A DNA stretch of 64,000 nt from a virus (IMGVR_UViG_3300031993_000010:1-64000); one strand, 5' to 3'. Numbered from the stretch's first letter, positions 1,713 through 58,735 are shown. Notes: generated from the sequence alone by a model not told the origin. Numbers and translations are program-made.

Positions 1713-1714
1713 AT

Positions 1715-1725
1715 TAGTATATTTA
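1715..1725 (+). promoter_or_regulatory. putative promoter TAGTATATTTA, followed by an inverted repeat at 1723-1742
   Basis: Matches the recurrent intergenic motif; lies upstream of the 1750 ORF. Confidence 0.5.
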
Positions 1726-1749
1726 CATCAGCACTGATGTAAGACACGA

Positions 1750-10334: not shown

Positions 10335-10351
10335 AAAAAATAGTATATTTA
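10335..10351 (+). promoter_or_regulatory. putative promoter AAAAAATAGTATATTTA
   Basis: Recurrent motif upstream of 10397. Confidence 0.55.
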
Positions 10352-10396
10352 TTTTGTCAATTCACATTTTGGTTTAACCATTAAAAATAAAAACAA

Positions 10397-19894: not shown

Positions 19895-20140
19895 ATGGGA
19901 TGTAAATGTAAAGAGAAGGCTGTTGCCGCAGAGAAGTATTCCGATGATAAACATGTACTTGAGAAAATAGAGGGGTTAAAGAGAATCCCAATGGTTATAG
20001 GCCGTATAGTCATTGGAATTTTAGTCAGTGGAATACTTATAGTTAGTCTGCCTTTCTTGGTTTTGTTTGTTGTTTTCAACACAGCCATGGGCAGAACCAC
20101 ACAGATAAACTTAAAGAGATTTTTTAACAAGAAGAAATGA
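19895..20140 (+). CDS. small membrane protein (MGCKC N-terminus)
   Basis: One long hydrophobic segment. Confidence 0.65.
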   Translation: MGCKCKEKAVAAEKYSDDKHVLEKIEGLKRIPMVIGRIVIGILVSGILIVSLPFLVLFVVFNTAMGRTTQINLKRFFNKKK

Positions 20141-26100: not shown

Positions 26101-26262
26101 AACGTTTATGCAGAGGCACAAAAAATCACATCACAAGATGTTGCGCCTGGTACACAGACTATTGATACCGAATATTCTTGGAGTGATTATCAAACCAACA
26201 ACCCGACATTGTATATAAAGGATGTTACAGGAATAAGAAGAAAATTGAATCTAACAACATAA
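20137..26262 (+). CDS. very large putative virion structural protein (N-terminal carboxypeptidase-regulatory-like domain, internal hydrophobic hairpin)
   Basis: 2041 aa; GRVLAN..GIPNARVSVF..TNNAGDYMIYGIPVG; lies in the baseplate block. Confidence 0.7.
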   Translation: MKNENNSYRVRTGVGIDAPSHIDVKLDQTFEFLNILSLKIGQKNLYKMPASNYGIICGRVLANKTFGIPNARVSVFIPSENSVFDVKDNILYNYSTVNSSNMDGIRYNLLPSSSNNDCHQTVGSMYEKEFVLDNNDVIKIFDKYYTYTTRTNNAGDYMIYGIPVGRQMLHVDVDLSDIGELSIRPYDMIYKGYNVNQFESPNKFRRDKNLNRLPQIFTQDKGVYVYPFWGDTSDDDTNASITRCDIEIDYKFEPTCVFMGSIISDTGSASISHKCVPDDKVGKMSELITGEGRIEMIRKTFDGKVEEFSVMGNRLIDGNGVWCYQIPMNLDYVRTDEFGNIVPTDNPDTGIPTRARVRFRISMDEPGTDDTARKRARFLVPNNPRIDGKDNGIYPEFNKSEKHEPDYEFGSRTKEESYRDLFWNNVYTVKSYIPRLQKKRSPASRKFTGFKMINHFGDNNPLPYNNLHIRMGFVYRFLCSLLTMFIVLVASLNTVIATIGYILLGLAYSLDVLGYIFGVVLSPLIWLIRVFKGEEVDDVSDLNIFSKLTCPIYGAIPKMFIQISNLCEEDTMVFVPGAGAWLRGCITAACKMRKANHCVNNQQVTISSRDSEDLIPQEISINEDGDVDKNEKEKADLCELGESQWTTEIDSLLNCVQNELVQDNDVTSFNFQDDWINGVLYAPLWYRKIRPKRKVFFGLIQIGGSDVWCDSESRASKPSRQSFKLYNTCTQKRDLDTQYKIQPLDKDTKKSVDSQCSNNKCHRQKTYFRVNKGVIVRKETKLGEFVYYYRSVEYDEKINISQINNEAGDVKLLFATDIVLLGNLRECNSLGIPQFFKHLESTTYKMPPDLVSVDYEGKDEDNPDLDSENEYTGTAQDWHTEFTGADWGNSGVDQNYNKENSRYQERGDGIKDGDNKEHDNGGLFYGINCAREYVKPKSCINLSRICEFGVSLDQSILFMSSENNEGTQMPPDGFMSYDEIYNMDARSMFATMNSNALRTVVNPQTGFPVYRFNTLYTDNFDGSLQNLMSDIPQVNDGNIPILYHNNNFLEVSSEAYLRFRYGFLPNTNDFGVTFYQTNDEYRFPRYENSFYFYFGLKEGKTAIDKFRSTYYAECSNESDSESVLRINYQPNSWCANESDNKDDLDGYVNLDLSDLTLPITLSIKDELTNEEIANITLRNKGYKFYIGQSNPEAVNGGYYCLNNEFPNGWNGLRNGVYTIYITDGEDNQQQETINFQAPKLDCDLSVTNFVGDVDVIGDMINLSQPPYCDILESSAISTNNTLERMIGGYITIESINNSTNPDYEIEIKKDGADENEPCSRVVYHTVDNSITPPNAFKNPTSSTPSLPRIIGVSEPNRYYIVTIREKCGDTYLHTNEFSQKVYVAAETEFKMYVNDVDYDLIQNFDTGYRDDEHGGDILDNGNISLVEGWLDFASGMGPLHELELPLASLPSTVSDLKNPSADCKYTLTDEYYFDEAEFFEDNLTLYDSAEDFQTSPDPFGRVVNTANPLGYDYYERGNLNPLIGFNIDYYYNGVNDEGKQLVLDALNEVIAKRLELLGLMRKAFYLTNDNGSKDLTVTANKTPFNTLMYYVEDIDDPDDNVAYGEYEDLDIENHEDNTKNSISIPTIEYDYTNDCIVFRIICNNQHKRPYYVGVRSQRNVTVPNLLGINSNGGFTPGANMPPLHSVDMMHMFGIHIIDKIPTFAGIVWQPMVEYPIYGATTQGYQGAYMTMDGLIAGHLYNMFSTSNNRNSAEFVTQQLGNEDVEFYTVTVRTEDGVTPDEYHIPTTRYIYNEREYSNNQVNDLYNQYLNYSIGETTTTPADPWRQQYMSVRSNSNTLYIRDVDDTFFTFPVNILNGRKPGFDEDTVIEQNDATYLKGRLPESIGGYEMIWYVRTEDNPIYGKFMNNSNITPSIMDWDAQFWDTGTINISKCYFIGLSNDSNQTYRVVTPTYEVVPIDVQCSENSNSKLQITINNISNNCYYLRYYNFNVYAEAQKITSQDVAPGTQTIDTEYSWSDYQTNNPTLYIKDVTGIRRKLNLTT

Positions 26263-29200
26263 TGCCGAACATACTTTCAAATAGTAAGAATTCAATATAT
26301 TCTGTTGACAAAGAATCCAAAATCAATGTGGATTTGGAACAGACAGGTAAAATACTGCCCTTGACCGACATCAAGGCGGTTGTAGACCAATATGAGATAT
26401 ACAAGGAAGAATCCGCCAAGTGTAACAACTATCGGGTCACGTTGACAATCAAACCATATTGTACAAACGTTCTTTTTAATCCGTGTACTGAGATTATATT
26501 CAATGAAGGGGCGTATGATATTGGAGATGCAGACAAACCTCAGATACAGGTTATAACCGATAATGGAACAGCCTCTGTGCGTTCCGAGTTTGAAGATAAA
26601 GTTTATGGTTTGGAAAGTGGTCTTACACGTCACTATATGGTGGAAAACACCGAATATTCAAGTGACAAGATAAGTGGCGACGGATATACGTACCATCCTG
26701 GCTATGATATATTTGGTAATCATCTTCTAAGAAACCTTTCATTCAGGACCGTGATTCCTTCTAATAATAAAAATCCTGACCGCGACTCTAAAATGGAACC
26801 AATCCCCCTGAGAGAGGTATTTAACACAATAGAGGATTATATGAGAGAACAGGATGGGGATGAAATTAAAGCATATGGCCGCTTTACCCCTGACGATGAG
26901 TCAAAAGATTGGAAGCATCTTTATGATTTAACAAATACTCTTTCATTTGAAAAGGGAGAATCTACAGAAGCAAACCTGACATCGGAAGACGGTTGGTTCG
27001 GGTTTGTCAACAATTCATCAATGGAGGTGAAAAAATGGGATAAACACTCAGGTAAGCCTGATACAGACCCACAAAACAACACATTCAGTCATGTTATAAA
27101 CAACAAGGGAAACTGTGAGTTTATTGACATGTATCCCGACAGGAGTCTGTTCTCCTTTGTACCAAAAGTCAACAAGTTCAAACATAGATTGGAGAAGAAT
27201 TGGGATGTATTTTTGACATATCCTTACGAAAACTTCTACGGTCATGAACTTGTGGAGAAAAATGGTACAAATTCCCTTGCAACATTAAATGTTATCTATA
27301 AAAACCTTAGAAGTGGGGGTTACGGCGTTGAGTTCAGGACATATTGCAAACATAATCTCTCATCAAATGATGAAATAACTATATTTTACACTTGGGGTAA
27401 TGATAATTTCACTGTAGGTGAGGACACTTACAGGGTTTCATATGTTGGTGACATGGAGAACAATAAAAAAGACTATTATTTCGCCATAGACGGTATAGGT
27501 TTGATAAACGATGTGTTCGGTGACAGAATATTGGATGAGTTTTATGAGGAAACAACACCGTCAGCCAACTACACCGTATTCAACCATAAGGTGGGTGTGA
27601 TACCAAACCCCGCCAATACAGAACCCGAGGTAATAAGACTTTATTTATATCAAGTTATTTCAAACAATAGTTTGACATGGGATAGCAGCAATACTTTTGA
27701 CTTGCTGCCTGCCGATGTGGAACACGGTCCTGTGAACTGCAGGGTGAGAATGAGGGATGAAAACGGTGACTATGTGTTCAACTATTATGTGTATGATGGC
27801 AATGATTATATATTACAAGATGACACGTTTAACCCTGACAACTATGAGTTTGGGGAGGGAAATACGTTTGACAGCAAACCTTATGGTTATGTTCAAAACG
27901 ATGTGATACGTGTTTTCAGGTTTGTGATGTACGAAAAGGTGGAAAAATGGTACATTCAGAAGAACGAAGATGGGATTCCGTTGGATGTCAATGAGATAAT
28001 CAACAGTAAACTGCAGGAAGGCGTTGAAATAAGGTTTGCCAAGTGTGTCAATGGTCATAATTGCGAGTATTATATCAGGAAATTCAAGAAGATACCGAAC
28101 CTGAAATACAAGGTTGAGGATTTGACTGACGAGGTGGCGACAAACAAGGTGCGTTTCGATGAATATGTGGAAAACAACGCATTTAAAAACAATACAATGC
28201 GTGATTTCATGAACGAAACTTATCAGTTGGCGTTCTCCAAGACCATATACAATGATGATGTGACACAGATACAGTTCACCGATACATTGTTTTTGGATAA
28301 AATCAGGGACAATCTCGGCAGACCGCTTACCGATATATATGCAACCATTGTGAAGAAAAATGTTGGCTACAAACATTGGTATGATAAAACAACCCCAATA
28401 TATTCAGATTTAAGTGAAAATGACAGGGTTGAGTTTTCACATTGTTTCGGAAAAGTGACAAGCGGTTTGGAGATGAACAGTGAAAAGGGTGATATAGCAA
28501 ACAATGAAATATTAAAGAGTAGAAGCGAATTTTCTGATGCAACCACCTTGAATAACAACAGTGAAAATTTCACCAAATCTTTGGAAGAATGGGGTGGCAT
28601 ACATATGGAGGAAGATGGTTCTTCTGACGGTATCTATGAGAACGATTATGTGTTTTTCGGCGACGTGGTTGAATACAATCCAATGCAGGCAATGGAAACT
28701 GTGTTGTCTGATGTGCAGATGAGATTCAATACACAGATGAGGGAACATTTTGAGGATTTGAAGGATTATTATCAAATATTTGATAAGGAAATAGTTCAGG
28801 ATGACTTTAAGCAAGGTGTAGGAAACAATGGGTTTGAAACCAAAACCATTATTGGTGATAATGATTATGAAAAAAATGAAAACAGGAATGAGGGATACTA
28901 CTATAAGGCACATTATCAGATACCTGTAAGACAACTGTCAGGAACGTTGCGGCAAAGTTCACATTTTGGTGTATTACTGAAGAAAGCATATCCAATCCAA
29001 GCCGACGGACTTTTCATAAAGGTGGAGACATTGAACAAACATGGTTATGGCGGTGGCAGAACAATTTATATTTGTGATGACAAGACAGGTATATGGTACA
29101 AGAGTTCGATAGTCTATGTTGACAGTGCTACTTCCTTTGTCATCAACCCAGTCCCGAAAGACGTTGAGATATATGAAGGTAAACCTTACATGAATTGGAT

Positions 29201-29528
29201 AGAGACATGTGAACTGCTTAACAACAAAAAACTCTGTCTCAGGGTACACAATCCAAATATTCCTGATTATGCGAAGAATGCTTCGGTAAACATGTTCTTA
29301 TGGAGGGATATAATTCCTGCAGTGGAAAGTGACAATGAGGAGTTGTCCACCTATCCGTATGCAAACAACGCTTTGTACATAGACAAATGTATCAATTTCT
29401 TCCTTAAGAGACAAGACCCTGACAAGATGAACGGGTTGTATTATGATGGAAAATTCGCTGACGTGGAGGGTAAAATTGAGAAAGAATCTAATTATGTATA
29501 TATACCTGAGGCTGAAAATATATGCTGA
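26262..29528 (+). CDS. putative baseplate/tail structural protein
   Basis: 1088 aa, translationally coupled (TAATG overlap). Confidence 0.7.
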   Translation: MPNILSNSKNSIYSVDKESKINVDLEQTGKILPLTDIKAVVDQYEIYKEESAKCNNYRVTLTIKPYCTNVLFNPCTEIIFNEGAYDIGDADKPQIQVITDNGTASVRSEFEDKVYGLESGLTRHYMVENTEYSSDKISGDGYTYHPGYDIFGNHLLRNLSFRTVIPSNNKNPDRDSKMEPIPLREVFNTIEDYMREQDGDEIKAYGRFTPDDESKDWKHLYDLTNTLSFEKGESTEANLTSEDGWFGFVNNSSMEVKKWDKHSGKPDTDPQNNTFSHVINNKGNCEFIDMYPDRSLFSFVPKVNKFKHRLEKNWDVFLTYPYENFYGHELVEKNGTNSLATLNVIYKNLRSGGYGVEFRTYCKHNLSSNDEITIFYTWGNDNFTVGEDTYRVSYVGDMENNKKDYYFAIDGIGLINDVFGDRILDEFYEETTPSANYTVFNHKVGVIPNPANTEPEVIRLYLYQVISNNSLTWDSSNTFDLLPADVEHGPVNCRVRMRDENGDYVFNYYVYDGNDYILQDDTFNPDNYEFGEGNTFDSKPYGYVQNDVIRVFRFVMYEKVEKWYIQKNEDGIPLDVNEIINSKLQEGVEIRFAKCVNGHNCEYYIRKFKKIPNLKYKVEDLTDEVATNKVRFDEYVENNAFKNNTMRDFMNETYQLAFSKTIYNDDVTQIQFTDTLFLDKIRDNLGRPLTDIYATIVKKNVGYKHWYDKTTPIYSDLSENDRVEFSHCFGKVTSGLEMNSEKGDIANNEILKSRSEFSDATTLNNNSENFTKSLEEWGGIHMEEDGSSDGIYENDYVFFGDVVEYNPMQAMETVLSDVQMRFNTQMREHFEDLKDYYQIFDKEIVQDDFKQGVGNNGFETKTIIGDNDYEKNENRNEGYYYKAHYQIPVRQLSGTLRQSSHFGVLLKKAYPIQADGLFIKVETLNKHGYGGGRTIYICDDKTGIWYKSSIVYVDSATSFVINPVPKDVEIYEGKPYMNWIETCELLNNKKLCLRVHNPNIPDYAKNASVNMFLWRDIIPAVESDNEELSTYPYANNALYIDKCINFFLKRQDPDKMNGLYYDGKFADVEGKIEKESNYVYIPEAENIC

Positions 29529-34969: not shown

Positions 34970-37900
34970 ATGCCTAGATACAGCAAAACACATAGTAATT
35001 ACGTAAAGCAGAAGAAACATCAGGATGTAACCGACGGATATATTTTCTCAAGGGATTGGGTAACGTTTGGAAATCTACACAGGTTGGAGCCTGGTAAGAA
35101 ACCGTTTTTCGGTGATTCCAATTTCATTTTCACCGACAACAGCACACCTGTATATGAGAAGAAGAGGGGTTATGGAAAATGGGTTGCCCGTTTTGTGTAT
35201 GATGATGTCAAGGATGCTGTAGGTGACGTAAATGAGGTCAGGGTAAACACAAACAGCAACGACCTGCGTTCATATGCGTATTACGGTTCAATGGTTGACC
35301 TGATACGTGTGACGATTGAGGACATTATAATGAATTTCCCTGCAAGGCTGTATTCAATAAACGAAAACCTCTTCCTGATAGATGGCGGTAATGAGTGGGT
35401 TGATACAGGTAGAAAGAAACTGTCCAACCAATTTTCAATAGACCTGCACAGTGAGGGGATATTGCTTGAGAATAATGAAAACGAACTGCGTTATCTGAGT
35501 GTTTCTTGGGACAAATACAATATTGTCAGGTACGACGGTGACGAAAGACTGTCCGAGGAAAATATAGTTTCATACGACATACTTCCACCTGACGTCGAGG
35601 TGTATAACGCTTACAAATACCATGAACAGGGATATAATTTCCTTGTGTATCAGAATCATCTTTTGAAATGGGACAATGGGACACACAGGTATATCGAAAT
35701 CGAGTATGTGACCGAGTGTCACAACTATTTTGAAAGTTGTGGTGACTATCTTCGTTATGACGGTGTCTTCTACAGGTGGGATGCGGAGAACGGTGAATAC
35801 GTGAAACTGCATTACTATGAAATCTGCGACGACAACTACCAAAAGATAGCGACCATCAGGATTGCTACCGAGGAAAACGTGTATTTCGTGTATGCGTACC
35901 GTATAAACGGCATTGTATATTATGCCTGCGCATATGAAGGTTTCTCAATCGAACCGAAACAGGAACTGATTGAGTCTTACTTCAACAACATTGACGGGTT
36001 AGCCAAGAAACTTCTCAGCAGAAACAGGATACCGTTGTACACGGCAAGGCTGTCCACACCATATGAGACCATGAGTGGCATGTACCTGTTCACGGACAGG
36101 GATTACACATGGCCTTCAGACGGATACTGCATCGACATTGGAAGCCCGAGTTACCTGTCATATCTCGACAGGCTTATGGACATGGCTGAGAAGTATGACA
36201 AGGTGTACAGCGACTGCATATGGCGTTGCATGACACACGAGACCATCAAGAATTTCGATTGGACATACAGACGTGAATACAGTGAGAACGACGCCTTGGA
36301 GAATATTGAGGGTGGACAGAGGATGGAGGAACTGCTTCATTTCTACGGTTACGTCTATGATACCGCCAAACGTTATGTTGACGGCATAAAGATGACCAAC
36401 AAGATTTCCTATGACGGTTACGACAACTGTGCCGATGCTGAGATTTCAGACAAGAACAACGCCAAAGGTTGGGATATTGTGTCAACAATATGGGAACCGT
36501 GCTACTACGAGCCGTATGACTGCAGCGGGGTTGAGACGGGAATTGACTATGTTTTCACACCGAAGTGCTTCGAAAGCAAATTTACGTTTGAGAATGACGA
36601 TTGCCTGTCCGTGGCATATGAAGGAAAAGATATAATATGCATTTCTCCAATTAGGAAGGGTGATGGCAATGAATATGAGATTTATGGGGGTAAACTTCCA
36701 ATTGTGTGGAATCCTAATTGTGCTACTGATATTGTGTTTGGTTGGATTGAAACACCCGATGGGAAAAGATATGTGACACATTACCGCATAGTAGATAAGA
36801 AAACAGGTGATATTATTGCTGAAGGTGATGTCAATGGGGTGGATGTATTCACTTTTGATATGTCAGGAATTCCATCGGGCGACTATGTAGTTTATTTGAC
36901 GTTTAGTGGCGGTGAGTCTGATTCATGGGTGATTGTTAAACAAGAATCCCAAAAATCCTGTGATGAATGCGATGATATATGGAAAGCAATGACAGAGGTG
37001 TGCGAGAAGAATAAGACATTACCTTTGATTATACAGAATAACTGTAATGACAAATACTATAAATTAGGCACGAAAAAATGGGTTGACGAAGAGTATGTAA
37101 ACGAGTTTCCGATGGCAGGTAACTGTTATGAAATAAACGCTATGATGCCGCACCCGTGTATTTGCGATGAGGTTTCATTCAAAATCGGTTGTGGTGTATT
37201 TATGCTTGACTGTAATGGTGTTGGCAAAGATATTGAAACACCAAAAATGTGTGAGACAACCAAATTTGACTATTACAGTGAAACTGACACAATTCTTGTG
37301 GCATGGGACAGTTATCACTACACTCCTCCGCAAACATGTAAATTAACACATAATAACGAGGTTGTAATAAACAACATTCCCATAAACACATGGCAGGAAA
37401 ACAACGATTATTGGGGTAGAATAACACTGAATACCGAATTATTGACTGAAAGTGAGTATGTGATTGAGGTTGAATATAATAGCACTTGCAAATTGTATTT
37501 TCAGATTTTCAACGTTGGACCGTTGTCTGTTGTTGTAAGACGTGAAGAATCCTTACAGGATTGTTCGATACATCCTATAGCGGTGGGGTTAAGGCACCAA
37601 TATGATTCGGAAACAAATACACTGTCGATATGGTTTGAAGAGGGAAGTGTGCATGTTTCAGGCATTAAGTTTGCCATTTTTGATTCAAATGATATTTGTG
37701 TCTATCCTACAACCTCTCTTACAAGCGAACCCGTGGTTTTGGAGATGAACGAGTATCCCGACGACGAGTATTACATGGTGTTTTATGAGAAAGAGGGTAT
37801 GTATAACATTTGCGTCACAATCACAAAGGACAACTATTCACATATAATACCCGACTACTGCATAACAGAAGGCGGAATGACGTTTACACCTTATCCGTGC

Positions 37901-40900
37901 CTGCCCGCCGAGGCAAACAAACTCGACGACCAATATATCAGTGTCGGATGCGGTCCTGATGCGCTTTACTATGAGAAAAAATGCAACGACCCCTCAAAGG
38001 AAATGTTGACATACGACTTCTTTGACGGAAAATGTACCGAAAAGGAAACAAGTTATGTGATAGAGACAGGTGAGTGTGTCGCCTTTGATGAGGATGAAGA
38101 TGAAATACACTTGATACCTTCATGCAACAGTGTATATGGCAGTGGTTTTTACACATATACCGTAGCTCAAGATTGGGGAAGCGGTATAGGCATAGAATTT
38201 AATTATGATTGTGTAAATGGTACAGTAACTTTTAATTTTAATTTGAAAGACCCTAACACCGACCCGTTACCAATATCTTATACCATTGAAACCAAGGATG
38301 GAACTACTCTTGTTATGTCAGGTGACATTGAGAACAATCCCGTGACAATCGATTTGTCAAGCCTGCAGGTGGGTGGATATACTATCCGTTTTTGCGGAGA
38401 TGTTAATTGTAAAAAATATGTTGATATACAGTATCTTGGAAAATATGAAGAGGAATGTCAAGGTTGTCAAGACTATTGGAACAAAATTAAAAAAGAGTGT
38501 GGTGGGGACGAAAAAATTCCTTATATCATACAGGATGCCGACAATCCATCCCGTTTCTATAACGTAGATAACAGTGAATGGGGTAATGAAAAGTTTGTTT
38601 TTGATTTTTGGAACGGTGGCAGTGGTATTTACGTTGGGAAGGAAGATTTGTTCGGTGATGGGTGTACAAAGAACGTTGTTGTGAAACTTGACTGTGGCGG
38701 TTGCTTCGAGATTGTCAATTGTACCGCAATAGGTGTTGATGACCCTGACGAAATAAATGAAATGTGTAAAAAACTTTTCAATTTCAAGGTTTTTGTTAAG
38801 GGTAATTTGCTTATAATTGATTGGGCTGCAAATACATCGTGTGTGCATTATATCATTAAGAATAATAATGACGAAGTTATTGTTGAAGAATATGGGCATT
38901 TTACTAAACCTTTGGGGATTGATTTGACTATACTTACTGAAAATGGGTATACTATAGAGATGGACTTTGACCGATTATCCATGACAATGGCAATAGACAT
39001 TGAAAAATGCCATGCCAACGAAACCTTCATAAGTCTTGTTGAAACGACACATGATTCAACTCCCATGATAGTCAAGGAGACTCCTTGGATAAACTACAGT
39101 CAGAGAAGCACAAGACACCTTGCATATGTCGAGTTAAGCGGCAATCCATCTTGTGACCTTGGAGATGACGAGTGGGATGAAAGCAACACGTTTTCAAGTG
39201 TGCCATATGTAATCAGTGAGGCAAGCCCACGTTTCATAAGGGTGGTGAACAACTACACAACGAGGTACTATATGCTGTCCGATGCGGGAATAGACCATAG
39301 ACCGTATACCCACGACAGGTGGTATTCGGCAATCAACCCGAACTCTGTGACACCTCTCAGTTGCGACATTGACTATCAGAGAAGACTTAACCTTTCCACC
39401 AACAGGATATTCAAGACAAAGGGTACGAAACATGCAATTGACATGGTGATGGGTCTCTTTGGTTATGGAAGGAACAACAAATCTGAACTGCATTGCAACA
39501 GTGACTATGCGCTTTGGGAAATGTGTACCTTCTCAACCATGAAGGGATATGACGACGCCTTCTATTTCTATGAACTGTTGGATGATGCGCCCGACCATGA
39601 GTTCACTGAAAATGAAACTTACCAATCACTTCCGTTGTGGAACGGTGAGTGGAGTTCCGAATACATACGTGTCGGCAGTAACGATATATACACATATTTC
39701 AGGCTTAACAGTGAATATACAGTCAGCGAGGCAATAAGGCAACTCTACCTTCACAGGACAAGCGAGAAGATGTACAACGATTGGTACACAGGTGTTCCGA
39801 TTGGTGACTATTATGAGGGTAATACACATTACGTGATACCGTATTACGATAAGAAGCGGGTGTATGAAGGCAACCTCTATTTCCAACAGAAGGGTGGATG
39901 GGGTAGGATGCCTGAAATATTCGGAATGAGCGACGACAGTCAGGTTGAATGGATGGAAACCGTACCTTACCTGCACGTTCTTCCGTCAGTTGAAGACCTG
40001 TTGTCGGTACTCTCCATTGACTTGCGTCAGGATGACATCTATTATGTTGCTGATTTGATGGATTATGTCAATTTTGACGAGGATGTACCTTACAACCTTT
40101 CACATTTTTTCAAGATAAACGACAGATACAATCCACAGAGATTTTCATCGTGGCTGAACGTGCCTATGACGGGTGAGATTGTTTACAACAAGAACTACAA
40201 TGTGGACGGTGTAACACATGACGACTATGTTCATGCGAAATATCTTGCTGATATAGTTTCAACATCACTGTTCAACAATCCTCACATTGGTTACGGCGAC
40301 TATGACATGGGTAGGGATTACCTCAACTATATGTTCACACCATATAAGTACAGTGTCGACAATTACTATTTCGACAACATGAAGTACAATTATATGGCGC
40401 AGCAAATGGTATTCGATATGGAATCAATACCGTTCAGGGACGGTTTGGCGGGGTATATGATGACACCTGACCCTGGTATTGATGATATTCCTGTATTTGA
40501 TGATGTTCCGTCACGGTATGACACAACATGGGATATGCCTGAATATATCAAAGTGTGGTGGGGTTACGGCTACAACTACTTCAAGAGGGTTGAGTTTGAC
40601 AAGGTTGAGAACAGGGTTAACGGCAACCTGATACCGAATGATTTATATATCTTGAACGACAAGGTATTGGTGCTTCAGAACTTGAACAATAATGTCTATC
40701 ATAGGCAATATATGAAGGATGTTGTCTTAAAATATGTGTTGCAGGTCATACCGTCGACCACAATTTTGATGTTAACAGGTTTTGATTCTAATGCAAACTG
40801 CTGTCTCACATACTATAATTTGTCTGTTGAGCCATCCAACCCAGAGTATGGAAACGTGTACGGTGGAGGTAGGTATCTGACAACAACATATGCTGTGCTT

Positions 40901-41197
40901 GTGGCTGAGGAAAATGAGGGATACCATTTTGTCAGATGGGAAAAGGTGGGTGAAGATAAAAATACTGTTGTCGTGTCAGAGAATAGCACAGTACAGGTCT
41001 TAGTTTGTGAGAACGATACGTACATTGCGGTGTTCGAGGAAGACTGTATCATAACCGCAGGCTGCAAGACAACGTGTAAGATGACGTTTGAATGTGAGAC
41101 ACAGGAACCGTGCGCCACTGTATTCCTGTGTGAGACCGAGGAACAGTGTGATGTCAATTTTACCTGCACATTGCCTGACAGTACAGGTTCAATATAA
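34970..41197 (+). CDS. very large baseplate/tail protein with inserted Ig-like (T9SS-CTD/DUF3244-like) modules and a C-terminal InlB B-repeat
   Basis: 2075 aa; IFKTKGTKHAIDMVMGLFG resembles a phage tail I/baseplate motif; YGNVYGGGRY...AEENEGYHFVRW B-repeat. Confidence 0.7.
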   Translation: MPRYSKTHSNYVKQKKHQDVTDGYIFSRDWVTFGNLHRLEPGKKPFFGDSNFIFTDNSTPVYEKKRGYGKWVARFVYDDVKDAVGDVNEVRVNTNSNDLRSYAYYGSMVDLIRVTIEDIIMNFPARLYSINENLFLIDGGNEWVDTGRKKLSNQFSIDLHSEGILLENNENELRYLSVSWDKYNIVRYDGDERLSEENIVSYDILPPDVEVYNAYKYHEQGYNFLVYQNHLLKWDNGTHRYIEIEYVTECHNYFESCGDYLRYDGVFYRWDAENGEYVKLHYYEICDDNYQKIATIRIATEENVYFVYAYRINGIVYYACAYEGFSIEPKQELIESYFNNIDGLAKKLLSRNRIPLYTARLSTPYETMSGMYLFTDRDYTWPSDGYCIDIGSPSYLSYLDRLMDMAEKYDKVYSDCIWRCMTHETIKNFDWTYRREYSENDALENIEGGQRMEELLHFYGYVYDTAKRYVDGIKMTNKISYDGYDNCADAEISDKNNAKGWDIVSTIWEPCYYEPYDCSGVETGIDYVFTPKCFESKFTFENDDCLSVAYEGKDIICISPIRKGDGNEYEIYGGKLPIVWNPNCATDIVFGWIETPDGKRYVTHYRIVDKKTGDIIAEGDVNGVDVFTFDMSGIPSGDYVVYLTFSGGESDSWVIVKQESQKSCDECDDIWKAMTEVCEKNKTLPLIIQNNCNDKYYKLGTKKWVDEEYVNEFPMAGNCYEINAMMPHPCICDEVSFKIGCGVFMLDCNGVGKDIETPKMCETTKFDYYSETDTILVAWDSYHYTPPQTCKLTHNNEVVINNIPINTWQENNDYWGRITLNTELLTESEYVIEVEYNSTCKLYFQIFNVGPLSVVVRREESLQDCSIHPIAVGLRHQYDSETNTLSIWFEEGSVHVSGIKFAIFDSNDICVYPTTSLTSEPVVLEMNEYPDDEYYMVFYEKEGMYNICVTITKDNYSHIIPDYCITEGGMTFTPYPCLPAEANKLDDQYISVGCGPDALYYEKKCNDPSKEMLTYDFFDGKCTEKETSYVIETGECVAFDEDEDEIHLIPSCNSVYGSGFYTYTVAQDWGSGIGIEFNYDCVNGTVTFNFNLKDPNTDPLPISYTIETKDGTTLVMSGDIENNPVTIDLSSLQVGGYTIRFCGDVNCKKYVDIQYLGKYEEECQGCQDYWNKIKKECGGDEKIPYIIQDADNPSRFYNVDNSEWGNEKFVFDFWNGGSGIYVGKEDLFGDGCTKNVVVKLDCGGCFEIVNCTAIGVDDPDEINEMCKKLFNFKVFVKGNLLIIDWAANTSCVHYIIKNNNDEVIVEEYGHFTKPLGIDLTILTENGYTIEMDFDRLSMTMAIDIEKCHANETFISLVETTHDSTPMIVKETPWINYSQRSTRHLAYVELSGNPSCDLGDDEWDESNTFSSVPYVISEASPRFIRVVNNYTTRYYMLSDAGIDHRPYTHDRWYSAINPNSVTPLSCDIDYQRRLNLSTNRIFKTKGTKHAIDMVMGLFGYGRNNKSELHCNSDYALWEMCTFSTMKGYDDAFYFYELLDDAPDHEFTENETYQSLPLWNGEWSSEYIRVGSNDIYTYFRLNSEYTVSEAIRQLYLHRTSEKMYNDWYTGVPIGDYYEGNTHYVIPYYDKKRVYEGNLYFQQKGGWGRMPEIFGMSDDSQVEWMETVPYLHVLPSVEDLLSVLSIDLRQDDIYYVADLMDYVNFDEDVPYNLSHFFKINDRYNPQRFSSWLNVPMTGEIVYNKNYNVDGVTHDDYVHAKYLADIVSTSLFNNPHIGYGDYDMGRDYLNYMFTPYKYSVDNYYFDNMKYNYMAQQMVFDMESIPFRDGLAGYMMTPDPGIDDIPVFDDVPSRYDTTWDMPEYIKVWWGYGYNYFKRVEFDKVENRVNGNLIPNDLYILNDKVLVLQNLNNNVYHRQYMKDVVLKYVLQVIPSTTILMLTGFDSNANCCLTYYNLSVEPSNPEYGNVYGGGRYLTTTYAVLVAEENEGYHFVRWEKVGEDKNTVVVSENSTVQVLVCENDTYIAVFEEDCIITAGCKTTCKMTFECETQEPCATVFLCETEEQCDVNFTCTLPDSTGSI

Positions 41198-48947: not shown

Positions 48948-49433
48948 ATGGGGGCAAGTATTGCAACTTATAACAATAATAACAAAACAAACGAGAGTAG
49001 AAGTATGAAACAAACAATCAGACTTACAGAAAGCGACCTTTACACTTTAATCAAAGAAGCCTTGAACGAACTTAGACCAGAAACATATGCCAATTATGCC
49101 AAAGGAAGGATGGAGCAGGCGAAAGGCAATAGAGAATTGTCGCCTGCGCAGCAAAGAGTTCAGCAAAACCCCTATGGTGGTCGTTCACTTGACTATAAAG
49201 CACGTCAAGGTAACCAACAAGCCGCCACAGCATGGAATCAAAAATACGGAACCCCCGAAGAAGGGTATGCTGAAATGAGTGTGCAGAATGGTAACGGTGG
49301 CTCGCGTCTGGTCATGGGTGGCACCCCTGAACAGGCAGGTAGGGAAACCGCAGCCCGAATGGGGGCGTATAATTATGCCGGGCAAAAACTCAACGAAGCC
49401 ATCACCCGTGCCATTCGCAAACTCCTGCGTTAA
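48948..49433 (+). CDS. small candidate head-internal protein with IRLTESDL..LIKEALNE motif (alternative start 49005)
   Basis: Preceded by GATATTTATA (48932), flanked by hairpins, ends KLNEAITRAIRKLLR. Confidence 0.65.
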   Translation: MGASIATYNNNNKTNESRSMKQTIRLTESDLYTLIKEALNELRPETYANYAKGRMEQAKGNRELSPAQQRVQQNPYGGRSLDYKARQGNQQAATAWNQKYGTPEEGYAEMSVQNGNGGSRLVMGGTPEQAGRETAARMGAYNYAGQKLNEAITRAIRKLLR

Positions 49434-55171: not shown

Positions 55172-55199
55172 AATATTGGAATTTGTTTTACCCATATGT

Positions 55200-55224
55200 A
55201 GGCGGCGTTTTGCCGCCTTTTTTT
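55200..55224 (+). terminator. rho-independent terminator
   Basis: aggcggc-gtttt-gccgcct-tttttt. Confidence 0.85.
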
Positions 55225-55264
55225 ATGTTTGAAAACTATTTATATTATATATAAACACATTATT

Positions 55265-55660
55265 ATGGAAAGACACGATTCACCTTTTATAGAAGTTAAA
55301 TTGCCACAGAACATTGTTGATGACGAAGAGAAGTGCCAAGATGTTGTTTCGGCTATACGCAATGCAATGCGTGAGGTAGGATATGTATATTATAACAATG
55401 ATGGTGGAAAATTGTTCCGCTATGCGCCGATGACGCCACCTGTTGAGTATCATTTTGTCAATGAGGTGCGTAATGCCTTGAAAGAAGAACTCAGTAGGGG
55501 TGAGGTAAGGGCAATGATAAGCAGCGAATTGGACGACTATACGAAAAACGCAAAGTTAAAGAAAGCAGTCAAGAATATTGCTGCTGATGTATTGGAAGAA
55601 TTTCTTGACAGTCTGTGGAAAAGAAAGTCATTCTGGAAGGGCACAATAAACAGAAATTAA
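55265..55660 (+). CDS. hypothetical protein
   Basis: ATG 55265 downstream of CTATTTATA (55236). Confidence 0.65.
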   Translation: MERHDSPFIEVKLPQNIVDDEEKCQDVVSAIRNAMREVGYVYYNNDGGKLFRYAPMTPPVEYHFVNEVRNALKEELSRGEVRAMISSELDDYTKNAKLKKAVKNIAADVLEEFLDSLWKRKSFWKGTINRN

Positions 55661-55672
55661 ACCAATTTAGTT

Positions 55673-58600
55673 ATGAAATCGGAATCAAGTGCAACATATA
55701 TTTTCTCCAAGGGTAAAGACGGTGTTTGGGCTGTGCTTGCGGCACGTCGTAAGGATAAGGGTGACGATGACTTCGGCGGATTGTGGAATGTACCTATAGG
55801 GGGTCGGGAAAAGGATGAAACCACGCTTGACACTGCCGTTAGGGAAACAAAGGAAGAATCGGGGATTGAAATACCGAAATCCGATTTCATTTCCGTTGGC
55901 GATTCTTGTTATTTCGAGAATGGTGAGAAACATATGTTTTCCAATTTTGTTGTAATAATGAAGGAGAAAGTTAATCCTGGTAAGGGTGACGGCGAAAACA
56001 GCAAGTTCAAATGGATACCGATGGCAGAGATTGACAAGCATAAGTGGGCATTTGGAATGGACAACACTGTTGCCAATGTTTTTGACTTTGTTGTAAAGGC
56101 AATTGAAAAAAGTGGAAAGGAACAACTTAACGAATACCTTGACAAGAATTATATGATGCCGTTGAAACAGTTCATGAATATGACGGACGAGGAAAAGGCT
56201 TGGGAATGTGCGGGCAGGTGTCCATGGCTGCTTACAGATTTCATTGAATCGTCTGAAATGGGTGAAAAGGTGGATGAACTTATAGAGAAGGGGGAATTGC
56301 CTAATGACTTGTTTGATTTGGAGAGTTATGAAATAGCCGAATATATTGGTCCGTTATTCAAAACCACGTTTTCGAAATATGCCGAAGATTTTGTCCAATA
56401 TGTTTACCGATACGGGGACACCGATGTTCCATTGTTTTGTGCGGCGGACTTTGTGAAAGAAATACACAACGAATGGCTTGTCCACATGACGGATAATCTA
56501 AGGGGTGTGAACCATGAAGGGTTCAGTTATGGCGTTGAAATGGAAGACCTTGCATATACCCCTGGTAGAGGCACAATAAAATACAAGTACGGTCCGGGAT
56601 ACAATTTTGCATTTGAGGCTGATGATGCCGATACCGCTGAAGGAAGTGGCTATGGCAAATATTGCATTTTATTTCAGGCGAGTGGTGTTGAGATATACCA
56701 TTATGGAGACGAACAGCATCAAGTCATATTCTATGGTCCGTCAGCAAAGAACCTTATATTCATAGTTCGTGCCGATGATTATAGTGACTATTCAGGTATG
56801 TGGTGTGTATTGGATGAAAAGGCAAGCGGATATGACAAATACCTGTGTCATTTCGACCGTCTTCAAGATGCTGTTTATTGGGCAATTAAAAACTTCCCGC
56901 AATACATGAGTCGTTTTATTGGAAAATCACAACAGAAAAATTTTGAGAGGAACAGGAATAAACCAAAAGAACAGAGATGGTGGCTTTCTGAGAACAAGGG
57001 TAGGACAATTGTATTGACTGAGAGTCAATTAAAATTAATAAACGAGAAGATGGACGTGTCACCTGACAAGTTCAATTCAAATATACGCTATTTTCTTCAT
57101 CAGTTGATTTCAGACCCTGTCAACGCACAACCCCCGACAGCACTGAAAGCTGTGGGTATAACACGTTCCAAACTCATCAACCTTTTAATAAAAAGAGGAA
57201 TAATAGAGAAACACGAGAAATTGAACGACAAGGATAAAGACGGTAATTTCAAGACCGCAACCATGAAAGTGTCGTTCACTGTCAAGGACAAGGTACCCGA
57301 TGAACTTGAATATAGGGTTCCCAAGAATGACTTCGACAGGAAGATAGAGAAATTGAGAAGAGAGATATTTGAGAAGAATGTTCCGACCAAAGCTGCTGAG
57401 GTGTACAACCGACAGTTGAGCGAGGATGGTGAAGGAATGGGCGGCGCTACGTCAGCAGCATCATCAGGGGCGTTTATTCAGCCAATAGGCGTTGCCATCG
57501 GGAGAAAGATAGATGAAGAAGTTGACGAATTGGAAGCAAAACATTCTTCAGGTGCAGATTTTGATAAATTCGATTCTGAGTACATGGGCAAAGGATGTGG
57601 TTCACAAGTATATGGTTGGGGGTATTATGTGACAACCGATAAGGAAACTGCAAAAGGATATGAAGATTATTTCAAAGATAATCCAACATACAAGATAGGT
57701 AGTACAAAAAGTGGTTCTTACACATATACCGTTGAAATCCCCGATGATAACGACGGCAATTATATCCTGTGGGACGGAAAACCTTTGGACAAGATTCCGT
57801 TCAGTAAAAATTTTGAGACATTTGGTGAACAGTACCAAAAACTTGCAAGTCTGACTAGTCCTAAGGAAGTCAGCATGATGCTGTCGAACATGGGTTATAC
57901 AGGGATAAAAACCACCCCGTTCAGAAATCAGAAAAAAACGGACGACCATCTCAATTTCAGCAGTGGTGCAAATTATGTTGTGTTTAAGGATGACGATTTG
58001 AAGATTCTGAAAAAGAAAGCACACACCAAGAAAGCAGATAAATACGGAGACTGGTATGTAATAGAGGATAGAGGTGGAATAGGTAATTTGTATAACCCTT
58101 CAACGAACCATTATTTTTTCGGTACTGAAGATAAATCCACATGGCCGCACGTACACCGTTTTTCAGATGAACCGAACATAGTAGGTATAACATTCCAAAA
58201 CCCTGACGGAGTGGCAGCAAATTTCATAGATGTTAAATCGATGAAATTGTTTTATCCCGAAACTGATGTGGAAAAGTGGCCATCTATGGTGACACTTCCG
58301 TTTGCATCTAATGCTAAATTTTACATAGTAAGGGATGATAACACAGCAAAGGTAATTCCTCTTGAACGTTTTACAAAAACCCCATTGTTTGGTAATTTTA
58401 ATGATGTCTCAACATGGGCGGATGACTACGGTAGCACGTCTGATGGGAAATTTACGGATTTCGAGATGGAAGATGGGTCACATATACACATGGACAAGAA
58501 CGGAAAGATAATTAATGGTGCTACAGGAAAAGAGGAAATGTCCAAACCCTTGCTCGAAAAGAAAAAGACGATAATTGTTACAGAGGAACAGATGGAGAAA

Positions 58601-58735
58601 ATCAGAGAGGTAACAACAACCGTGTCAGTAGGTGATTATCAATACGATGTTCCGTTAGGTGTTGATAATGAGGATGAAACAATGCAACGTCATAACGGTG
58701 AGGGTGGTTCGGTGTCAATAAATCACGTAAAATAA
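55673..58735 (+). CDS. multidomain polyvalent protein: NUDIX hydrolase + ART-like + unknown + ART-PolyVal-like + repeat domain
   Basis: NUDIX box GGREKDETTLDTAVRETKEESGI; WLVHMTD..GFSYG; HSSGADFDKFD..YMG.G.G.QVYGWGYYVT...GYTGI...NYVVF. Confidence 0.8.
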   Translation: MKSESSATYIFSKGKDGVWAVLAARRKDKGDDDFGGLWNVPIGGREKDETTLDTAVRETKEESGIEIPKSDFISVGDSCYFENGEKHMFSNFVVIMKEKVNPGKGDGENSKFKWIPMAEIDKHKWAFGMDNTVANVFDFVVKAIEKSGKEQLNEYLDKNYMMPLKQFMNMTDEEKAWECAGRCPWLLTDFIESSEMGEKVDELIEKGELPNDLFDLESYEIAEYIGPLFKTTFSKYAEDFVQYVYRYGDTDVPLFCAADFVKEIHNEWLVHMTDNLRGVNHEGFSYGVEMEDLAYTPGRGTIKYKYGPGYNFAFEADDADTAEGSGYGKYCILFQASGVEIYHYGDEQHQVIFYGPSAKNLIFIVRADDYSDYSGMWCVLDEKASGYDKYLCHFDRLQDAVYWAIKNFPQYMSRFIGKSQQKNFERNRNKPKEQRWWLSENKGRTIVLTESQLKLINEKMDVSPDKFNSNIRYFLHQLISDPVNAQPPTALKAVGITRSKLINLLIKRGIIEKHEKLNDKDKDGNFKTATMKVSFTVKDKVPDELEYRVPKNDFDRKIEKLRREIFEKNVPTKAAEVYNRQLSEDGEGMGGATSAASSGAFIQPIGVAIGRKIDEEVDELEAKHSSGADFDKFDSEYMGKGCGSQVYGWGYYVTTDKETAKGYEDYFKDNPTYKIGSTKSGSYTYTVEIPDDNDGNYILWDGKPLDKIPFSKNFETFGEQYQKLASLTSPKEVSMMLSNMGYTGIKTTPFRNQKKTDDHLNFSSGANYVVFKDDDLKILKKKAHTKKADKYGDWYVIEDRGGIGNLYNPSTNHYFFGTEDKSTWPHVHRFSDEPNIVGITFQNPDGVAANFIDVKSMKLFYPETDVEKWPSMVTLPFASNAKFYIVRDDNTAKVIPLERFTKTPLFGNFNDVSTWADDYGSTSDGKFTDFEMEDGSHIHMDKNGKIINGATGKEEMSKPLLEKKKTIIVTEEQMEKIREVTTTVSVGDYQYDVPLGVDNEDETMQRHNGEGGSVSINHVK

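Follow-up and report, generated by a model that had tools for sequence, protein, structure and literature searches.

Gene content of the locus

The DNA analysed here (the window, 64,000 nucleotides) comes from a 227-kb virus record that is 62% complete, and the genome that carries the gene described below is that of a jumbo phage. An open reading frame on the plus strand at 55673-58735 had been claimed in an earlier note on this DNA. Translation of the window bore this out, with an intact frame encoding a 116-kDa protein of 1020 amino acids, and all of the motifs quoted in that note were located as described (Table 1). The upstream 131-aa ORF heads a two-gene operon, is co-oriented with the polyprotein gene and shares 58% identity with the ORF in the same position of a syntenic locus, L003. 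The polyprotein gene is directly flanked by genes of SbcCD-like, primase-like, and sigma-factor type and not by genes for the head. No PHROG matches were obtained for the 131-aa ORF, the neighbouring small ORFs, or the leader-bearing ORFs discussed below. Paralogues of the modules were not found elsewhere in the 227-kb record, tblastn and megablast searches of 50,697 phage records gave no match to the query, and a close-relative search of IMG/VR with the whole polyprotein returned none.

Promoter motifs were read off aligned upstream regions; k-mer enrichment taken alone gave no clean motif. The strict promoter-like motif has five matches genome-wide, all intergenic, one of which lies 5' of a gp25-like baseplate gene (17421), and a similar motif occurs 5' of the homologous genes in L003 and in a further locus, L004. 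The element common to the polyprotein operon and the gp25-like gene, CTATTTAT(A/T)TATA, is kept in two other phages. A different upstream motif, TAGTATATTT, was observed for the replication genes and the sigma gene. Argued from this one structural operon, late timing of the polyprotein operon is probable.

Table 1 Features of the polyprotein operon, in window coordinates
Feature	Position	Strand	Residues or remarks
Terminator hairpin	55196-55225		precedes promoter-like motif
Promoter-like motif CTATTTATATTATATATA	55237..55258	+	~28 nt 5' of 131-aa ORF
131-aa ORF, conserved	55265..55660	+	ends 12 nt before polyprotein start
Module A, NUDIX hydrolase domain	55673..56107	+	aa 1-145
NUDIX box	55799-55867	+	aa 43-65
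A/B junction	56108..56155	+	aa 146-161, contains Q-L-N-E|Y
QLNE	56123-56134	+	motif location verified
Module B	56156..56983	+	aa 162-437
H-M-T	56483	+	motif location verified
GFSYG	56519	+	motif location verified
B/C junction and leader cassette	56984..57052	+	aa 438-460
LSE..IVLTESQLKLINE	56984-57046	+	motif location verified
Module C core	57053..57376	+	aa 461-568
C/D linker, disordered	57377..57532	+	aa 569-620
QLSE	57413	+	motif location verified
IDEE	57509	+	motif location verified
Module D, divergent ART-PolyVal/DUF3990-like	57533..58018	+	aa ~621-782
HSSGADFDKFD	57542	+	motif location verified
QVYGWGYY	57605	+	motif location verified
NYVVF	57971	+	motif location verified
Module R, beta-rich, beta-propeller-blade-like	58019..58543	+	aa ~783-957
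R/E junction, second leader cassette, peptide E, and stop	58544..58735	+	aa 958-1020
LLE..IIVTEEQMEKIRE	58550-58609	+	motif location verified

Sequence and structure prediction of the modules

The NUDIX box of module A, described earlier as intact, was confirmed. PF00293 matched aa 17-134 in Pfam above threshold (E 4e-14, 53.2 bits, cut-off 21.1), and the G-x5-E-x7-REUxEExGU box is whole, with the segment reading G-G-R-E-K-D-E-...-R-E-T-K-E-E-S-G-I. PHROG nudix families were also matched by this module. NCBIfam returned for NUDIX generic and far sub-threshold matches only (MutT, RppH, NadM-Nudix, and others), and the PDB matches were generic as well, with an Ap4A hydrolase as the nearest relative (E 5e-5). 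The polyprotein N-terminus, M-K-S-E-S-S-A-T-Y-I-F, leads directly into the NUDIX domain with no leader cassette.

Module B was predicted by AF2 (pLDDT 87, pTM 0.84) to fold as a helical bundle at aa ~162-257 followed by an alpha/beta domain at aa ~258-423 with a weakly ART-like fold. The best PDB fold matches found with VIA were all ARTs and all weak (TreX Z 5.7, Scabin Z 5.5, and pertussis S1 Z 5.4; rmsd 3.5-6.0 over 105-140 residues). Foldseek returned Scabin/KptA at E 0.17-0.3, and AbiGi and a phage ART were matched in the Atlas and BFVD libraries. Module B had no sequence match in Pfam, NCBIfam, or PDB, and PDB profile searches with modules B and C gave nothing below E 0.3. In a 74-sequence alignment (A1) the conserved positions were W268, H271, G283/F284, G309-Y310, S337-G338, H343, G345-D346, Q350, and F353; H271 is invariant and Y310 nearly so, and the residue before the V-I-F strand (strand 5) is the invariant Gln350 and not Glu or Asp. 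The catalytic triad of ARTs combines H or R on strand 1, Y or S on strand 2, and E or D on strand 5. Given the low fold scores and the Gln at the strand-5 position, the assignment of this domain as ART-like is tentative. The module B family is virus-restricted, having been observed at 54 IMG/VR loci, whereas 185,579 species genomes yielded 3 MAG contigs with it.

An "unknown domain" had been placed between the following linkers. A domain does exist there, and it now reads as winged-helix-like: the core of module C was modelled by AF2 as helices with a beta hairpin (pLDDT ~90), and VIA matched the fold to IscR (Z 5.1 and 4.3) and TA0346 (Z 4.4). The C family is represented by a 50-sequence alignment (A5). 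No sequence match to module C was found in Pfam, PDB, or NCBIfam, and ESM Atlas feature searches with C and with a ~400-aa X+C+E relative yielded nothing informative. The C/D linker (pLDDT 25-42) holds Q-L-S-E|D-G-E-G, a degenerate tail-like element (ATSAASSGAFIQP), and I-D-E-E. A Φ-x-E-D-G-E-G-G after C is kept in relatives, and the relatives P0002-4 have a 41-aa insertion at this linker.

Module D contains H-S-S in strand 1, G-W-G-Y-Y in strand 2, and an A-N-Y-V-V-F-K-D-D-D strand 5. In the ART-PolyVal/Tox-ART-HYD2 clade these strands carry H, Y, and D, respectively (PMC5512222). The K-H-S-S and G-W-G-Y-Y of module D align with the Y-H-G-S/T and G-x-G-x-Y of bona fide ART-PolyVal members (alignment A4); Asn767 of strand 5 is conserved and aligned with a Glu of one ART-PolyVal copy. 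PF18760 was matched at E ≤1 by 12 of 13 aligned relatives (best 1.2e-20), and module D matches the DUF3990/ART-PolyVal regions of P0136 and P0125. D may therefore be read as a divergent ART-PolyVal-like domain from its motifs and its relatives; its own match to PF18760 is below the cut-off (E 0.025, 15.8 bits against 31.2, profile positions 11-131 of 140) and its AF2 model is poor (pLDDT 29-88). The match to DUF3990 was at E 0.063, and NCBIfam gave nothing for D-R-E. The "repeat domain" noted after D is present as module R, with a fold (pLDDT >90 in AF2) that now reads as beta-propeller-like, matching WD40 and other propellers in Foldseek (E 6e-5 to 5e-4, probability ~1.0) and VIA (Z 5.0-5.7); in the relative P0037, the D domain is followed by a WG_beta_rep. 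Peptide E (aa 982-1020, G-D-Y-Q-Y-D-V-P...G-G-S-V-S-I-N) is common to 54 relatives and forms the C-terminus of a ~400-aa phage family. In P0005, P0011-14, and P0018 a Tad6 domain follows directly after E.

Module boundaries and the leader cassette

AF2 confidence is low at aa 146-161 (pLDDT 43-74 for the A/B junction), 438-446, 569-652, and 958-970, and the ends of homologues fall at aa ~152, ~438-445, ~604-620, and ~969. P0005 and P0006 begin at query aa 152, two residues before the E-Y of NEYL, and P0007 and P0011-13 begin at aa 438-445. Because homologues begin or end there, the linkers are true module boundaries, and the suggestion that cargo is gained or lost at the LxE linkers was corroborated: module exchanges among homologues, like the ends of the homologues themselves, coincide exactly with these positions.

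A cassette was recognized at these linkers with a consensus of roughly (V/N)xES(K/R)...ΦΦΦ(T/S)E followed by an amphipathic helix. It forms internal leaders of the polyprotein at aa 446 and 967, within the B/C sequence L-S-E-N-K-G-R-T-I-V-L-T-E-S-Q-L-K-L-I-N-E and the sequence L-L-E-K-K-K-T-I-I-V-T-E-E-Q-M-E-K-I-R-E at aa 958-981, and internal relatives at the A/B-type joint read ΦxES K...ΦxE|YLDK. The cassette was also found at the N-termini of stand-alone relatives and of ORFs 48948 and 89052; 15 of the 31 strict instances are N-terminal and the others lie at junctions. Since it is found ahead of unrelated domains and, in stand-alone proteins, immediately behind the start Met, it does not belong to any single fold. 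At least 90% of the 50 C-domain sequences retain the leader Glu, with conserved hydrophobic periodicity after it (alignment A5), and the first leader was modelled by AF2 as helix 1 of domain C (pLDDT 76-85). The helix-1 placement of this leader and the periodicity point to a structural role more readily than to a simple site of cleavage.

At least one Φ-x-E site precedes the internal B domain in 33 of 36 relatives, in which the density of such sites is 0.085 in the 24 residues before internal B and 0.024 elsewhere, a 3.5-fold difference. Within the query protein the enrichment is slight, with 7 sites among 238 residues of low confidence versus 11 among 637 folded ones. The expectation that LxE sites would avoid folded domains accordingly held for some sites and failed for others: of 18 [LIV]xE sites from aa 146 onward, seven are in low-confidence regions and 11 are confidently folded. 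Those in or beside low-confidence linkers are LNE154, LSE440, LTE450, LSE584, IDE615, LLE962, and VTE971.

Two other interpretations of the cassette were rejected. A dimerising ribbon-helix-helix is at odds with the poor conservation of the post-Glu helix and with the occurrence of the cassette without a second helix. DNA-level recombination cassettes would be joined by a direct DNA repeat, and none joins the two leader copies, whose DNA identity is no more than the shared peptide demands.

Relatives and domain shuffling

Four full-length orthologues keep the fusion at 67-86% identity. At L003, where flanking genes are 38-66% identical, the same slot is occupied by P0007, a 1214-aa protein of the order C-x-D-R-E-E-x-Tad6 without NUDIX or B, and a Macro gene lies near the gene for this Tad6-bearing protein. 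A census of 45 multidomain relatives gave ART-PolyVal (10), Tad6 (5), NUDIX (5), GNAT (3), DUF3990 (3), SprT-like (2), Acb1 (1), and RES (1), and PolyA_pol is also among the domains of relatives. Tad6 (PF25188) had no match in this protein or in the 227-kb record and was matched only in relatives; Acb1 is absent from this protein. These comparisons establish where the modules begin and end, that they have been shuffled, and which domain families they belong to, and they support the description of a multi-effector protein (NUDIX plus two ART-related domains) whose modules are gained and lost at linkers. The role against NAD or nucleotide-signal defences put forward in the earlier note fits the validated counter-defence modules Tad6 and Acb1 of relatives, but neither is in this protein.

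Comparison with known systems

Domain architecture has been the main basis for predicting polyvalent proteins, and to our knowledge their loading and processing has been worked out in few cases only, among them P1 DdrB and the virion RNA polymerase of N4. The present polypeptide carries at least two unrelated effector domains (NUDIX, B, C, D, and R), and its relatives share the domain network of the class (ART-PolyVal, GNAT, SprT-like, RES, and PolyA_pol). The module array, together with shuffled relatives bearing known effector domains, makes it polyvalent as defined by Iyer, Burroughs, Anand, de Souza, and Aravind 2017 (PMC5512222), with a NAD/ADP-ribose and counter-defence theme. Polyvalent proteins are likewise large chains of unrelated effectors, with ART as the commonest protein-modifying domain, and those shared with the relatives here are ART-PolyVal, GNAT, SprT-like (a zincin-type peptidase), and RES, with extensive shuffling (PMC5512222). 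In contrast, the chain described here is not tied to the virion by a MuF, portal, MPTase, lysozyme, or vRNAP module, no Pfam family is matched by module B or C, and Tad6 and Acb1, both defined only recently, occur among its relatives. It also has the leader/junction cassette and the C-terminal peptide, neither of which was found by term searches of PMC5512222.

In T4, Alt and the internal proteins carry a 10-residue capsid targeting sequence that is removed by gp21 (PMC9026906), and ART and Nudix proteins have been argued to be often virion-packaged in myoviruses (PMC9503650). The likeness to T4 Alt and IPI-III lies in a short hydrophobic-x-Glu leader before unrelated cargo with ART among it, in the exposed (L/I)-x-E at the junctions, and in the late, baseplate-like promoter context suggested for the polyprotein operon. 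The leader here differs in exceeding 10 residues, in consisting of a strand and an amphipathic helix, and in being internal as well as N-terminal, whereas the N-terminus of this protein itself lacks the leader that T4-type capsid targeting would use. The T4 cargo is encoded by separate genes and not as a polyprotein, and Alt is of the R-S-E type while the ART-like domains here are of the H-Y type. The motif here also differs from the S/A/G-x-E recognized by phiKZ gp175. In phiKZ-like giant phages (201phi2-1 and SPN3US; PMC9026906, PMC5694885) internal ejection proteins are cut after Glu by the prohead protease; the resemblance is in the jumbo phage setting and the conserved Glu-ending motifs in disordered segments, of which several per junction would give redundancy here. 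The ejection proteins have no sequence similarity to the polyprotein. Tad6 is a type I Thoeris inhibitor that is reported to bind ThsB directly (PF25188; Yirmiya et al. 2025, from the summary given by PMC13728456). P0007 at the syntenic locus and several other relatives end in Tad6 directly after the E element, and this protein shares just the preceding leader/tail element.

Proposed mechanism and alternatives

The best overall explanation, to which we give about an even chance, is a packaged effector polyvalent protein aimed at NAD/ADP-ribose chemistry. Its chain would comprise, in order, NUDIX, the helical and ART-like B, the winged-helix-like C, the ART-PolyVal-like D with the propeller-like R, and peptide E, and would target the NAD/ADP-ribose chemistry of the host, for take-over or to counter NAD-derived immune signalling. 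The operon would be transcribed from a late-type promoter, and the protein would be loaded into the head through the cassettes, the C-terminal peptide, or both, and would enter the next host together with the DNA. There, we infer, the NUDIX module would hydrolyse an ADP-ribose-type nucleotide and the ART-like modules would bind or transfer ADP-ribose. Virion packaging of the polyprotein is slightly favoured, and cutting by a head protease after the junction Glu is rather doubtful. The promoter-like motif held in common with the baseplate gene and the Glu joints in disordered linkers count toward packaging and cutting. Fusions to head domains, such as MuF or portal, were not observed. The gp21 protease (PF03420) and gp23 (PF07068) were not found in the 227-kb record, which is not decisive because the record is 62% complete.

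A cytoplasmic multidomain protein for counter-defence or takeover, unpackaged, uncut, and acting as one polypeptide, is a substantial minority possibility. The cassette would then join domains structurally, contributing a strand and the helix that opens the next domain, and its conservation would allow modules to recombine without misfolding. The modelling of the first leader within domain C and the periodicity kept after its Glu are consistent with this, as are the replication and transcription genes nearby, the missing head protease and capsid genes in this partial record, the leaderless N-terminus, and the direct ThsB binding reported (PMC13728456) for Tad6, which relatives carry. Such a joint does not sit easily with a cassette that precedes unrelated domains (B, C, peptide E, and others) and follows the start Met of stand-alone proteins. 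The promoter motif, common with the baseplate operon and unlike that of replication genes, also argues for packaging, as does the general association of polyvalent proteins with virion or conjugative delivery (PMC5512222).

The packaged protein could also be processed more strictly, as the earlier note had it, with a gp21-like protease cutting every (I/L)-x-E linker into ~5 injected enzymes that pair ADP-ribose writers with a NUDIX eraser. Each of the A/B, B/C, C/D, and R/E junctions has at least one exposed Φ-x-E, homologues such as P0005 and P0006 start within a few residues of the sites, and giant-phage head proteases also cleave after Glu (PMC9026906). This scheme is nevertheless improbable, given a D/R boundary without linker or site, no gp21 homologue found in the incomplete record, a Gln at the expected acid position of B, and a strand-5 acid that is not placeable in D; the writer/eraser pairing is speculative because the NUDIX substrate is not assignable from generic matches. 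Those same positions, the invariant Gln350 where ARTs carry a catalytic Glu or Asp and the conserved Asn767, would suit ART-like modules that act as binders or sponges for NAD-derived signals or host proteins, with C and E as tethers to DNA or a virion component. The winged-helix-like fold of C, the propeller-like fold of R, which is typical of binding domains, and the presence in relatives of Tad6, a binder rather than an enzyme, are in keeping with that role. Against it, B and D both retain the H and Y motifs without exception, acidic residues (K-D-D-D) lie just past the strand in D, and ARTs with a non-acidic third residue can be active mono-ARTs, as in the PARP family. We regard this binding role, too, as having a low probability.

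Implications for jumbo phage biology

Stand-alone proteins begin with the same joints that form the seams of fusions, which makes the cassette a concrete candidate for a loading or processing signal. That the cassette, perhaps with the C-terminal peptide, is a portable "load into capsid, cut here" code in a large group of uncultured and probably Bacteroidota-infecting phages is unlikely. On the same reading, B would form a previously undescribed ART clade, confined to viruses, with a predicted H-Y-Q active site. Tad6 and Acb1 occur in the same chains, and these proteins could therefore serve as catalogues from which to mine counter-defence domains, the unannotated B and C among them. The two syntenic jumbo phages offer a natural experiment at one locus, with NUDIX and B here versus Tad6 and a nearby Macro gene there. 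If packaging is true, counter-defence would begin at DNA entry; and if the portable code is true, such phages would be able to assemble, swap, and inject counter-defence arrays (NUDIX, ART-like, Tad6, and Acb1) as polyproteins.

Genome context and modules of the polyprotein

The open frame at 55673-58735 (+) was borne out, with 1020 residues and a mass of 116 kDa, and all of the motifs quoted in the earlier note were found in place. The window covers the first 64 kb of an IMG/VR virus record of 227 kb, whose completeness is rated at 62%, and an identical polyprotein is present on a contig of 364,702 bp. The record carries genes for gp25- and gp6-like baseplate wedge proteins, a UvsX-like recombinase, a DnaB-like helicase, a ribonucleotide reductase, an SbcC-like protein and a sigma factor, and was therefore assigned to a jumbo myovirus-type phage; no similar record was found among 50,697 phage genomes. 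Very large ORFs downstream of the baseplate wedge genes (20137-26262, 26262-29528 and 34970-41197 (+); 2041, 1088 and 2075 aa) had no PHROG match and presumably encode tail or baseplate fibre proteins.

The earlier note had read the protein as a NAD/ADP-ribose multi-effector with a NUDIX domain and two ART-like domains. The NUDIX assignment stood on its Pfam match, while the ART matches of modules B and D were low-scoring or sub-threshold. The NUDIX module gave only generic NCBIfam matches, far below threshold, and its nearest PDB relative is an Ap4A hydrolase (E 5e-5). Homologues number ~1,700 in all; the remainder of the protein (aa 146-1020) has 731 at E <= 1e-10, with matches to B and C predominating.

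Module B had no sequence match in Pfam, NCBIfam or the PDB. Its AlphaFold2 model, predicted from a 74-sequence alignment, reached pLDDT 87 and pTM 0.84, and the structures most similar to its second half were nearly all ADP-ribosyltransferases. Their scores were low: Z 5.7 for TreX (rmsd 3.5 over 105 aligned residues), Z 5.5 for Scabin and Z 5.4 for pertussis S1, with a Foldseek E value of 0.17. Matches in predicted-structure libraries included AbiGi and a mycobacteriophage ART. Conserved residues are compatible with an H-Y-Q arrangement (H271, Y310, Q350), in which Q350, invariant in the alignment, occupies the position of Glu or Asp in ARTs. Across 185,579 species genomes the B family occurred on 3 MAG contigs, compared with 54 loci in IMG/VR, and it is essentially virus-restricted.

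Module C showed a weak likeness to winged-helix regulators (IscR, Z 5.1). In module D, the motifs K-H-S-S...F-D-K-F-D...G-W-G-Y-Y-V-T can be aligned with the motifs that hold the strand-1 His and the strand-2 Tyr in ART-PolyVal/DUF3990 domains. D's own match to PF18760 was below threshold (E 0.025); of 13 aligned relatives, 12 matched this family. The ART-PolyVal clade is H-Y-D according to Iyer et al. (PMC5512222). The third strand of D reads A-N-Y-V-V-F-K-D-D-D, so that the acidic residue could not be placed, and the AlphaFold2 model of D was poor (pLDDT 29-88). The peptide of module E is also the C-terminus of a phage family of about 400 aa built as X+C+E. The C-termini of this family (P0030-P0158) and window 58616-58732 share one nearly invariant peptide, (V)G-D-Y-x-Y-D-V-P-F-G-G-D-K-E-T-L-x-R-K-N-G-x-G-G-S-V-S-I-N. 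It is found at the end of dozens of phage proteins that are diverse in other respects, with Φ-x-E-T-T-T (Φ, hydrophobic) just before it, and is a candidate for a docking or signal peptide.

Modules of the polyprotein and the motif site of its operon
Feature	Position or sequence	Description	Basis or status
Promoter-like motif site before polyprotein operon	CTATTTATATTATATA		candidate
A	aa 1-145	NUDIX	Pfam E 4e-14, NUDIX box intact
B	aa ~162-437	helical bundle, then alpha/beta domain	AlphaFold2 model
C	aa 461-568	helices and beta hairpin	model pLDDT ~90
Linker after C	aa 569-652	disordered	predicted model
D	aa ~621-782	ART-PolyVal/DUF3990-like	aligned motifs
R	aa ~783-957	beta domain, propeller-blade-like	confident model; Foldseek E ~1e-4, probability ~1.0
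E	aa 982-1020	peptide G-D-Y-Q-Y-D-V-P...G-G-S-V-S-I-N	conserved

Module seams and the junction cassette

The earlier note had proposed to check whether domains are gained or lost at the linkers, and homologue matches (n=158, BLAST and HMMER) begin or end at aa ~152, 438-445, 604-620 and 969. Homologues P0005 and P0006 start two residues upstream of E-Y in N-E-Y-L, P0007 and P0011-13 start at the leader of C, and E is found behind C or R, in two copies, or ahead of Tad6. By these alignments the linkers are real module seams. Orthologues P0002-P0004 have, at aa ~605-653, an insertion of 41 residues in which part of the C|D linker (window 57377-57532) is repeated, and the length of this linker is thus free to vary.

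The joints share a grammar in which a few basic residues separate (V/N)-x-E-S-(K/R) from Φ-Φ-Φ-(T/S)-E, and an amphipathic helix follows; after C the form is Φ-x-E-D-G-E-G-G. In stand-alone B, C and other proteins this cassette directly follows the start Met (for example M-K-K-I-I-L-T-E-N-Q-F and M-K-K-I-I-R-L-T-E-N-E-L), and 15 of 31 strict instances are N-terminal. The leader Glu is conserved at >=90%, and the density of Φ-x-E in the 24 residues ahead of internal B domains is 3.5 times that found elsewhere. Within the polyprotein the enrichment is modest (7 sites in 238 low-confidence residues vs 11 in 637 folded residues). Apart from what the shared peptide dictates, the two leader copies have no DNA repeat in common, so that selection acts on the protein. 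No earlier description of the cassette was found in the cited literature.

The cassette also heads low-complexity basic ORFs at window 48948-49433 (+) and at 89052-89906 (+) of the whole record (G000; equal to L002:3053-3907). Both have an in-frame extension upstream, after which they begin with M-K-Q/R-T-I/V-R-L-T-E-S-D/E-L, the leader as at the polyprotein junctions; their products are probably disordered and resemble phage internal proteins. The 48948 gene is absent from the syntenic phage locus L003.

Locus and promoter-like motifs

Locus L003, on a metagenome contig of 145 kb, shares synteny with 47-64 kb of the window, and flanking proteins are 38-66% identical. In the same slot, after the homologue of a 131-aa ORF, it encodes a 1214-aa protein, C-x-D-R-E-E-x-Tad6, without NUDIX or B; the present architecture is kept in four full-length orthologues (67-86% identity). 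Taken together, these indicate a stable but rapidly re-tooled effector locus. The 131-aa ORF (55265-55660 (+)) ends 12 nt before the polyprotein start in the same operon, is 58% identical in L003 at the same position and had no family match; its product could be a partner or chaperone. A Macro-domain gene lies at L003:18497-18967, between orf160 and NT5C homologues, and is absent from this phage at the corresponding G000 ~64400-64970. The L003 phage thus has Macro and Tad6 without NUDIX and B, and this phage the reverse, so that the accessory genes concerned with ADP-ribose chemistry are complementary in the two. A Clp-type AAA+/M41 peptidase fusion gene (G000 65596-67734 (+)), ~7 kb downstream of the polyprotein, keeps its placement in L003 (L003:19550-end).

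Upstream of the two-gene operon lie a terminator and then the motif CTATTTATATTATATATA. Its strict form has five matches in the genome, all intergenic, and one of these sites is 25 nt upstream of the gp25-like baseplate gene. The homologous genes in L003 and in locus L004 have similar motifs ahead of them. Replication genes and the sigma gene have a different motif, TAGTATATTT, and two promoter-like classes appear to exist in this genome. The TAGTATATTT class was seen before replication, recombination and sigma-factor genes at window 1714-1730, 10340-10360, 49540, 50610, 53445 and 63880. The (C/A)TATTTAT(A/T)TATA class was seen at window 3856, 17421, 48935 and 55237 and at G000 136660 (-), where it precedes the polyprotein operon, the gp25-like baseplate gene, the leader-bearing ORF 48948 and two further ORFs of 342 and 1450 aa.

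Possible late expression, packaging and cutting

The earlier note had proposed that the protein is packaged and cut at LxE linkers by a protease like T4 gp21. The conserved Glu of the joints in disordered segments, the cassette behaving like a portable leader, and the CTATTTATATTATATATA motif common to the operon and the gp25-like baseplate gene all count in favour. The candidate junction residues are E154, E440/E450, E584/E615 and E962/E971. The leader-like cassette recalls the T4 capsid targeting sequence, which is removed by gp21. Head proteases of giant phages cleave after Glu (PMC9026906), and Iyer et al. 2022 argued that the virions of myoviruses often contain packaged ART and Nudix proteins (PMC9503650). 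Against this, no gp21 or gp23 homologue was found in the 62%-complete 227-kb record, the polyprotein's own N-terminus is without the leader, the model makes leader 1 the first helix of C, the adjoining genes are not head genes, and the late promoter is inferred from one structural operon. On balance the polyprotein is probably expressed late and may well be packaged into the virion; cutting at the junction Glu seems doubtful. The observation in the earlier note is confirmed and its interpretation partly supported, with the pairing of 'writer' and 'eraser' and the mechanism by T4 gp21 standing as hypotheses.

Relatives and protein class

Among 45 multidomain relatives the domains were ART-PolyVal (10), Tad6 (5), NUDIX (5), GNAT (3), DUF3990 (3) and WG repeats (3), with SprT-like peptidase (2) and Acb1, RES, PolyA polymerase and nucleoside deoxyribosyltransferase-like domains (1 each) being rarer. 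Acb1 is an anti-CBASS nuclease family. This repertoire matches that of the polyvalent proteins (Iyer et al. 2017, PMC5512222), to which Tad6, an inhibitor of type I Thoeris that binds ThsB (PMC13728456), and Acb1 are additions. The polyprotein, which includes two unannotated, mostly viral domain families and the conserved leader/junction cassette, belongs to the polyvalent-protein class as a new form with a NAD/ADP-ribose theme.
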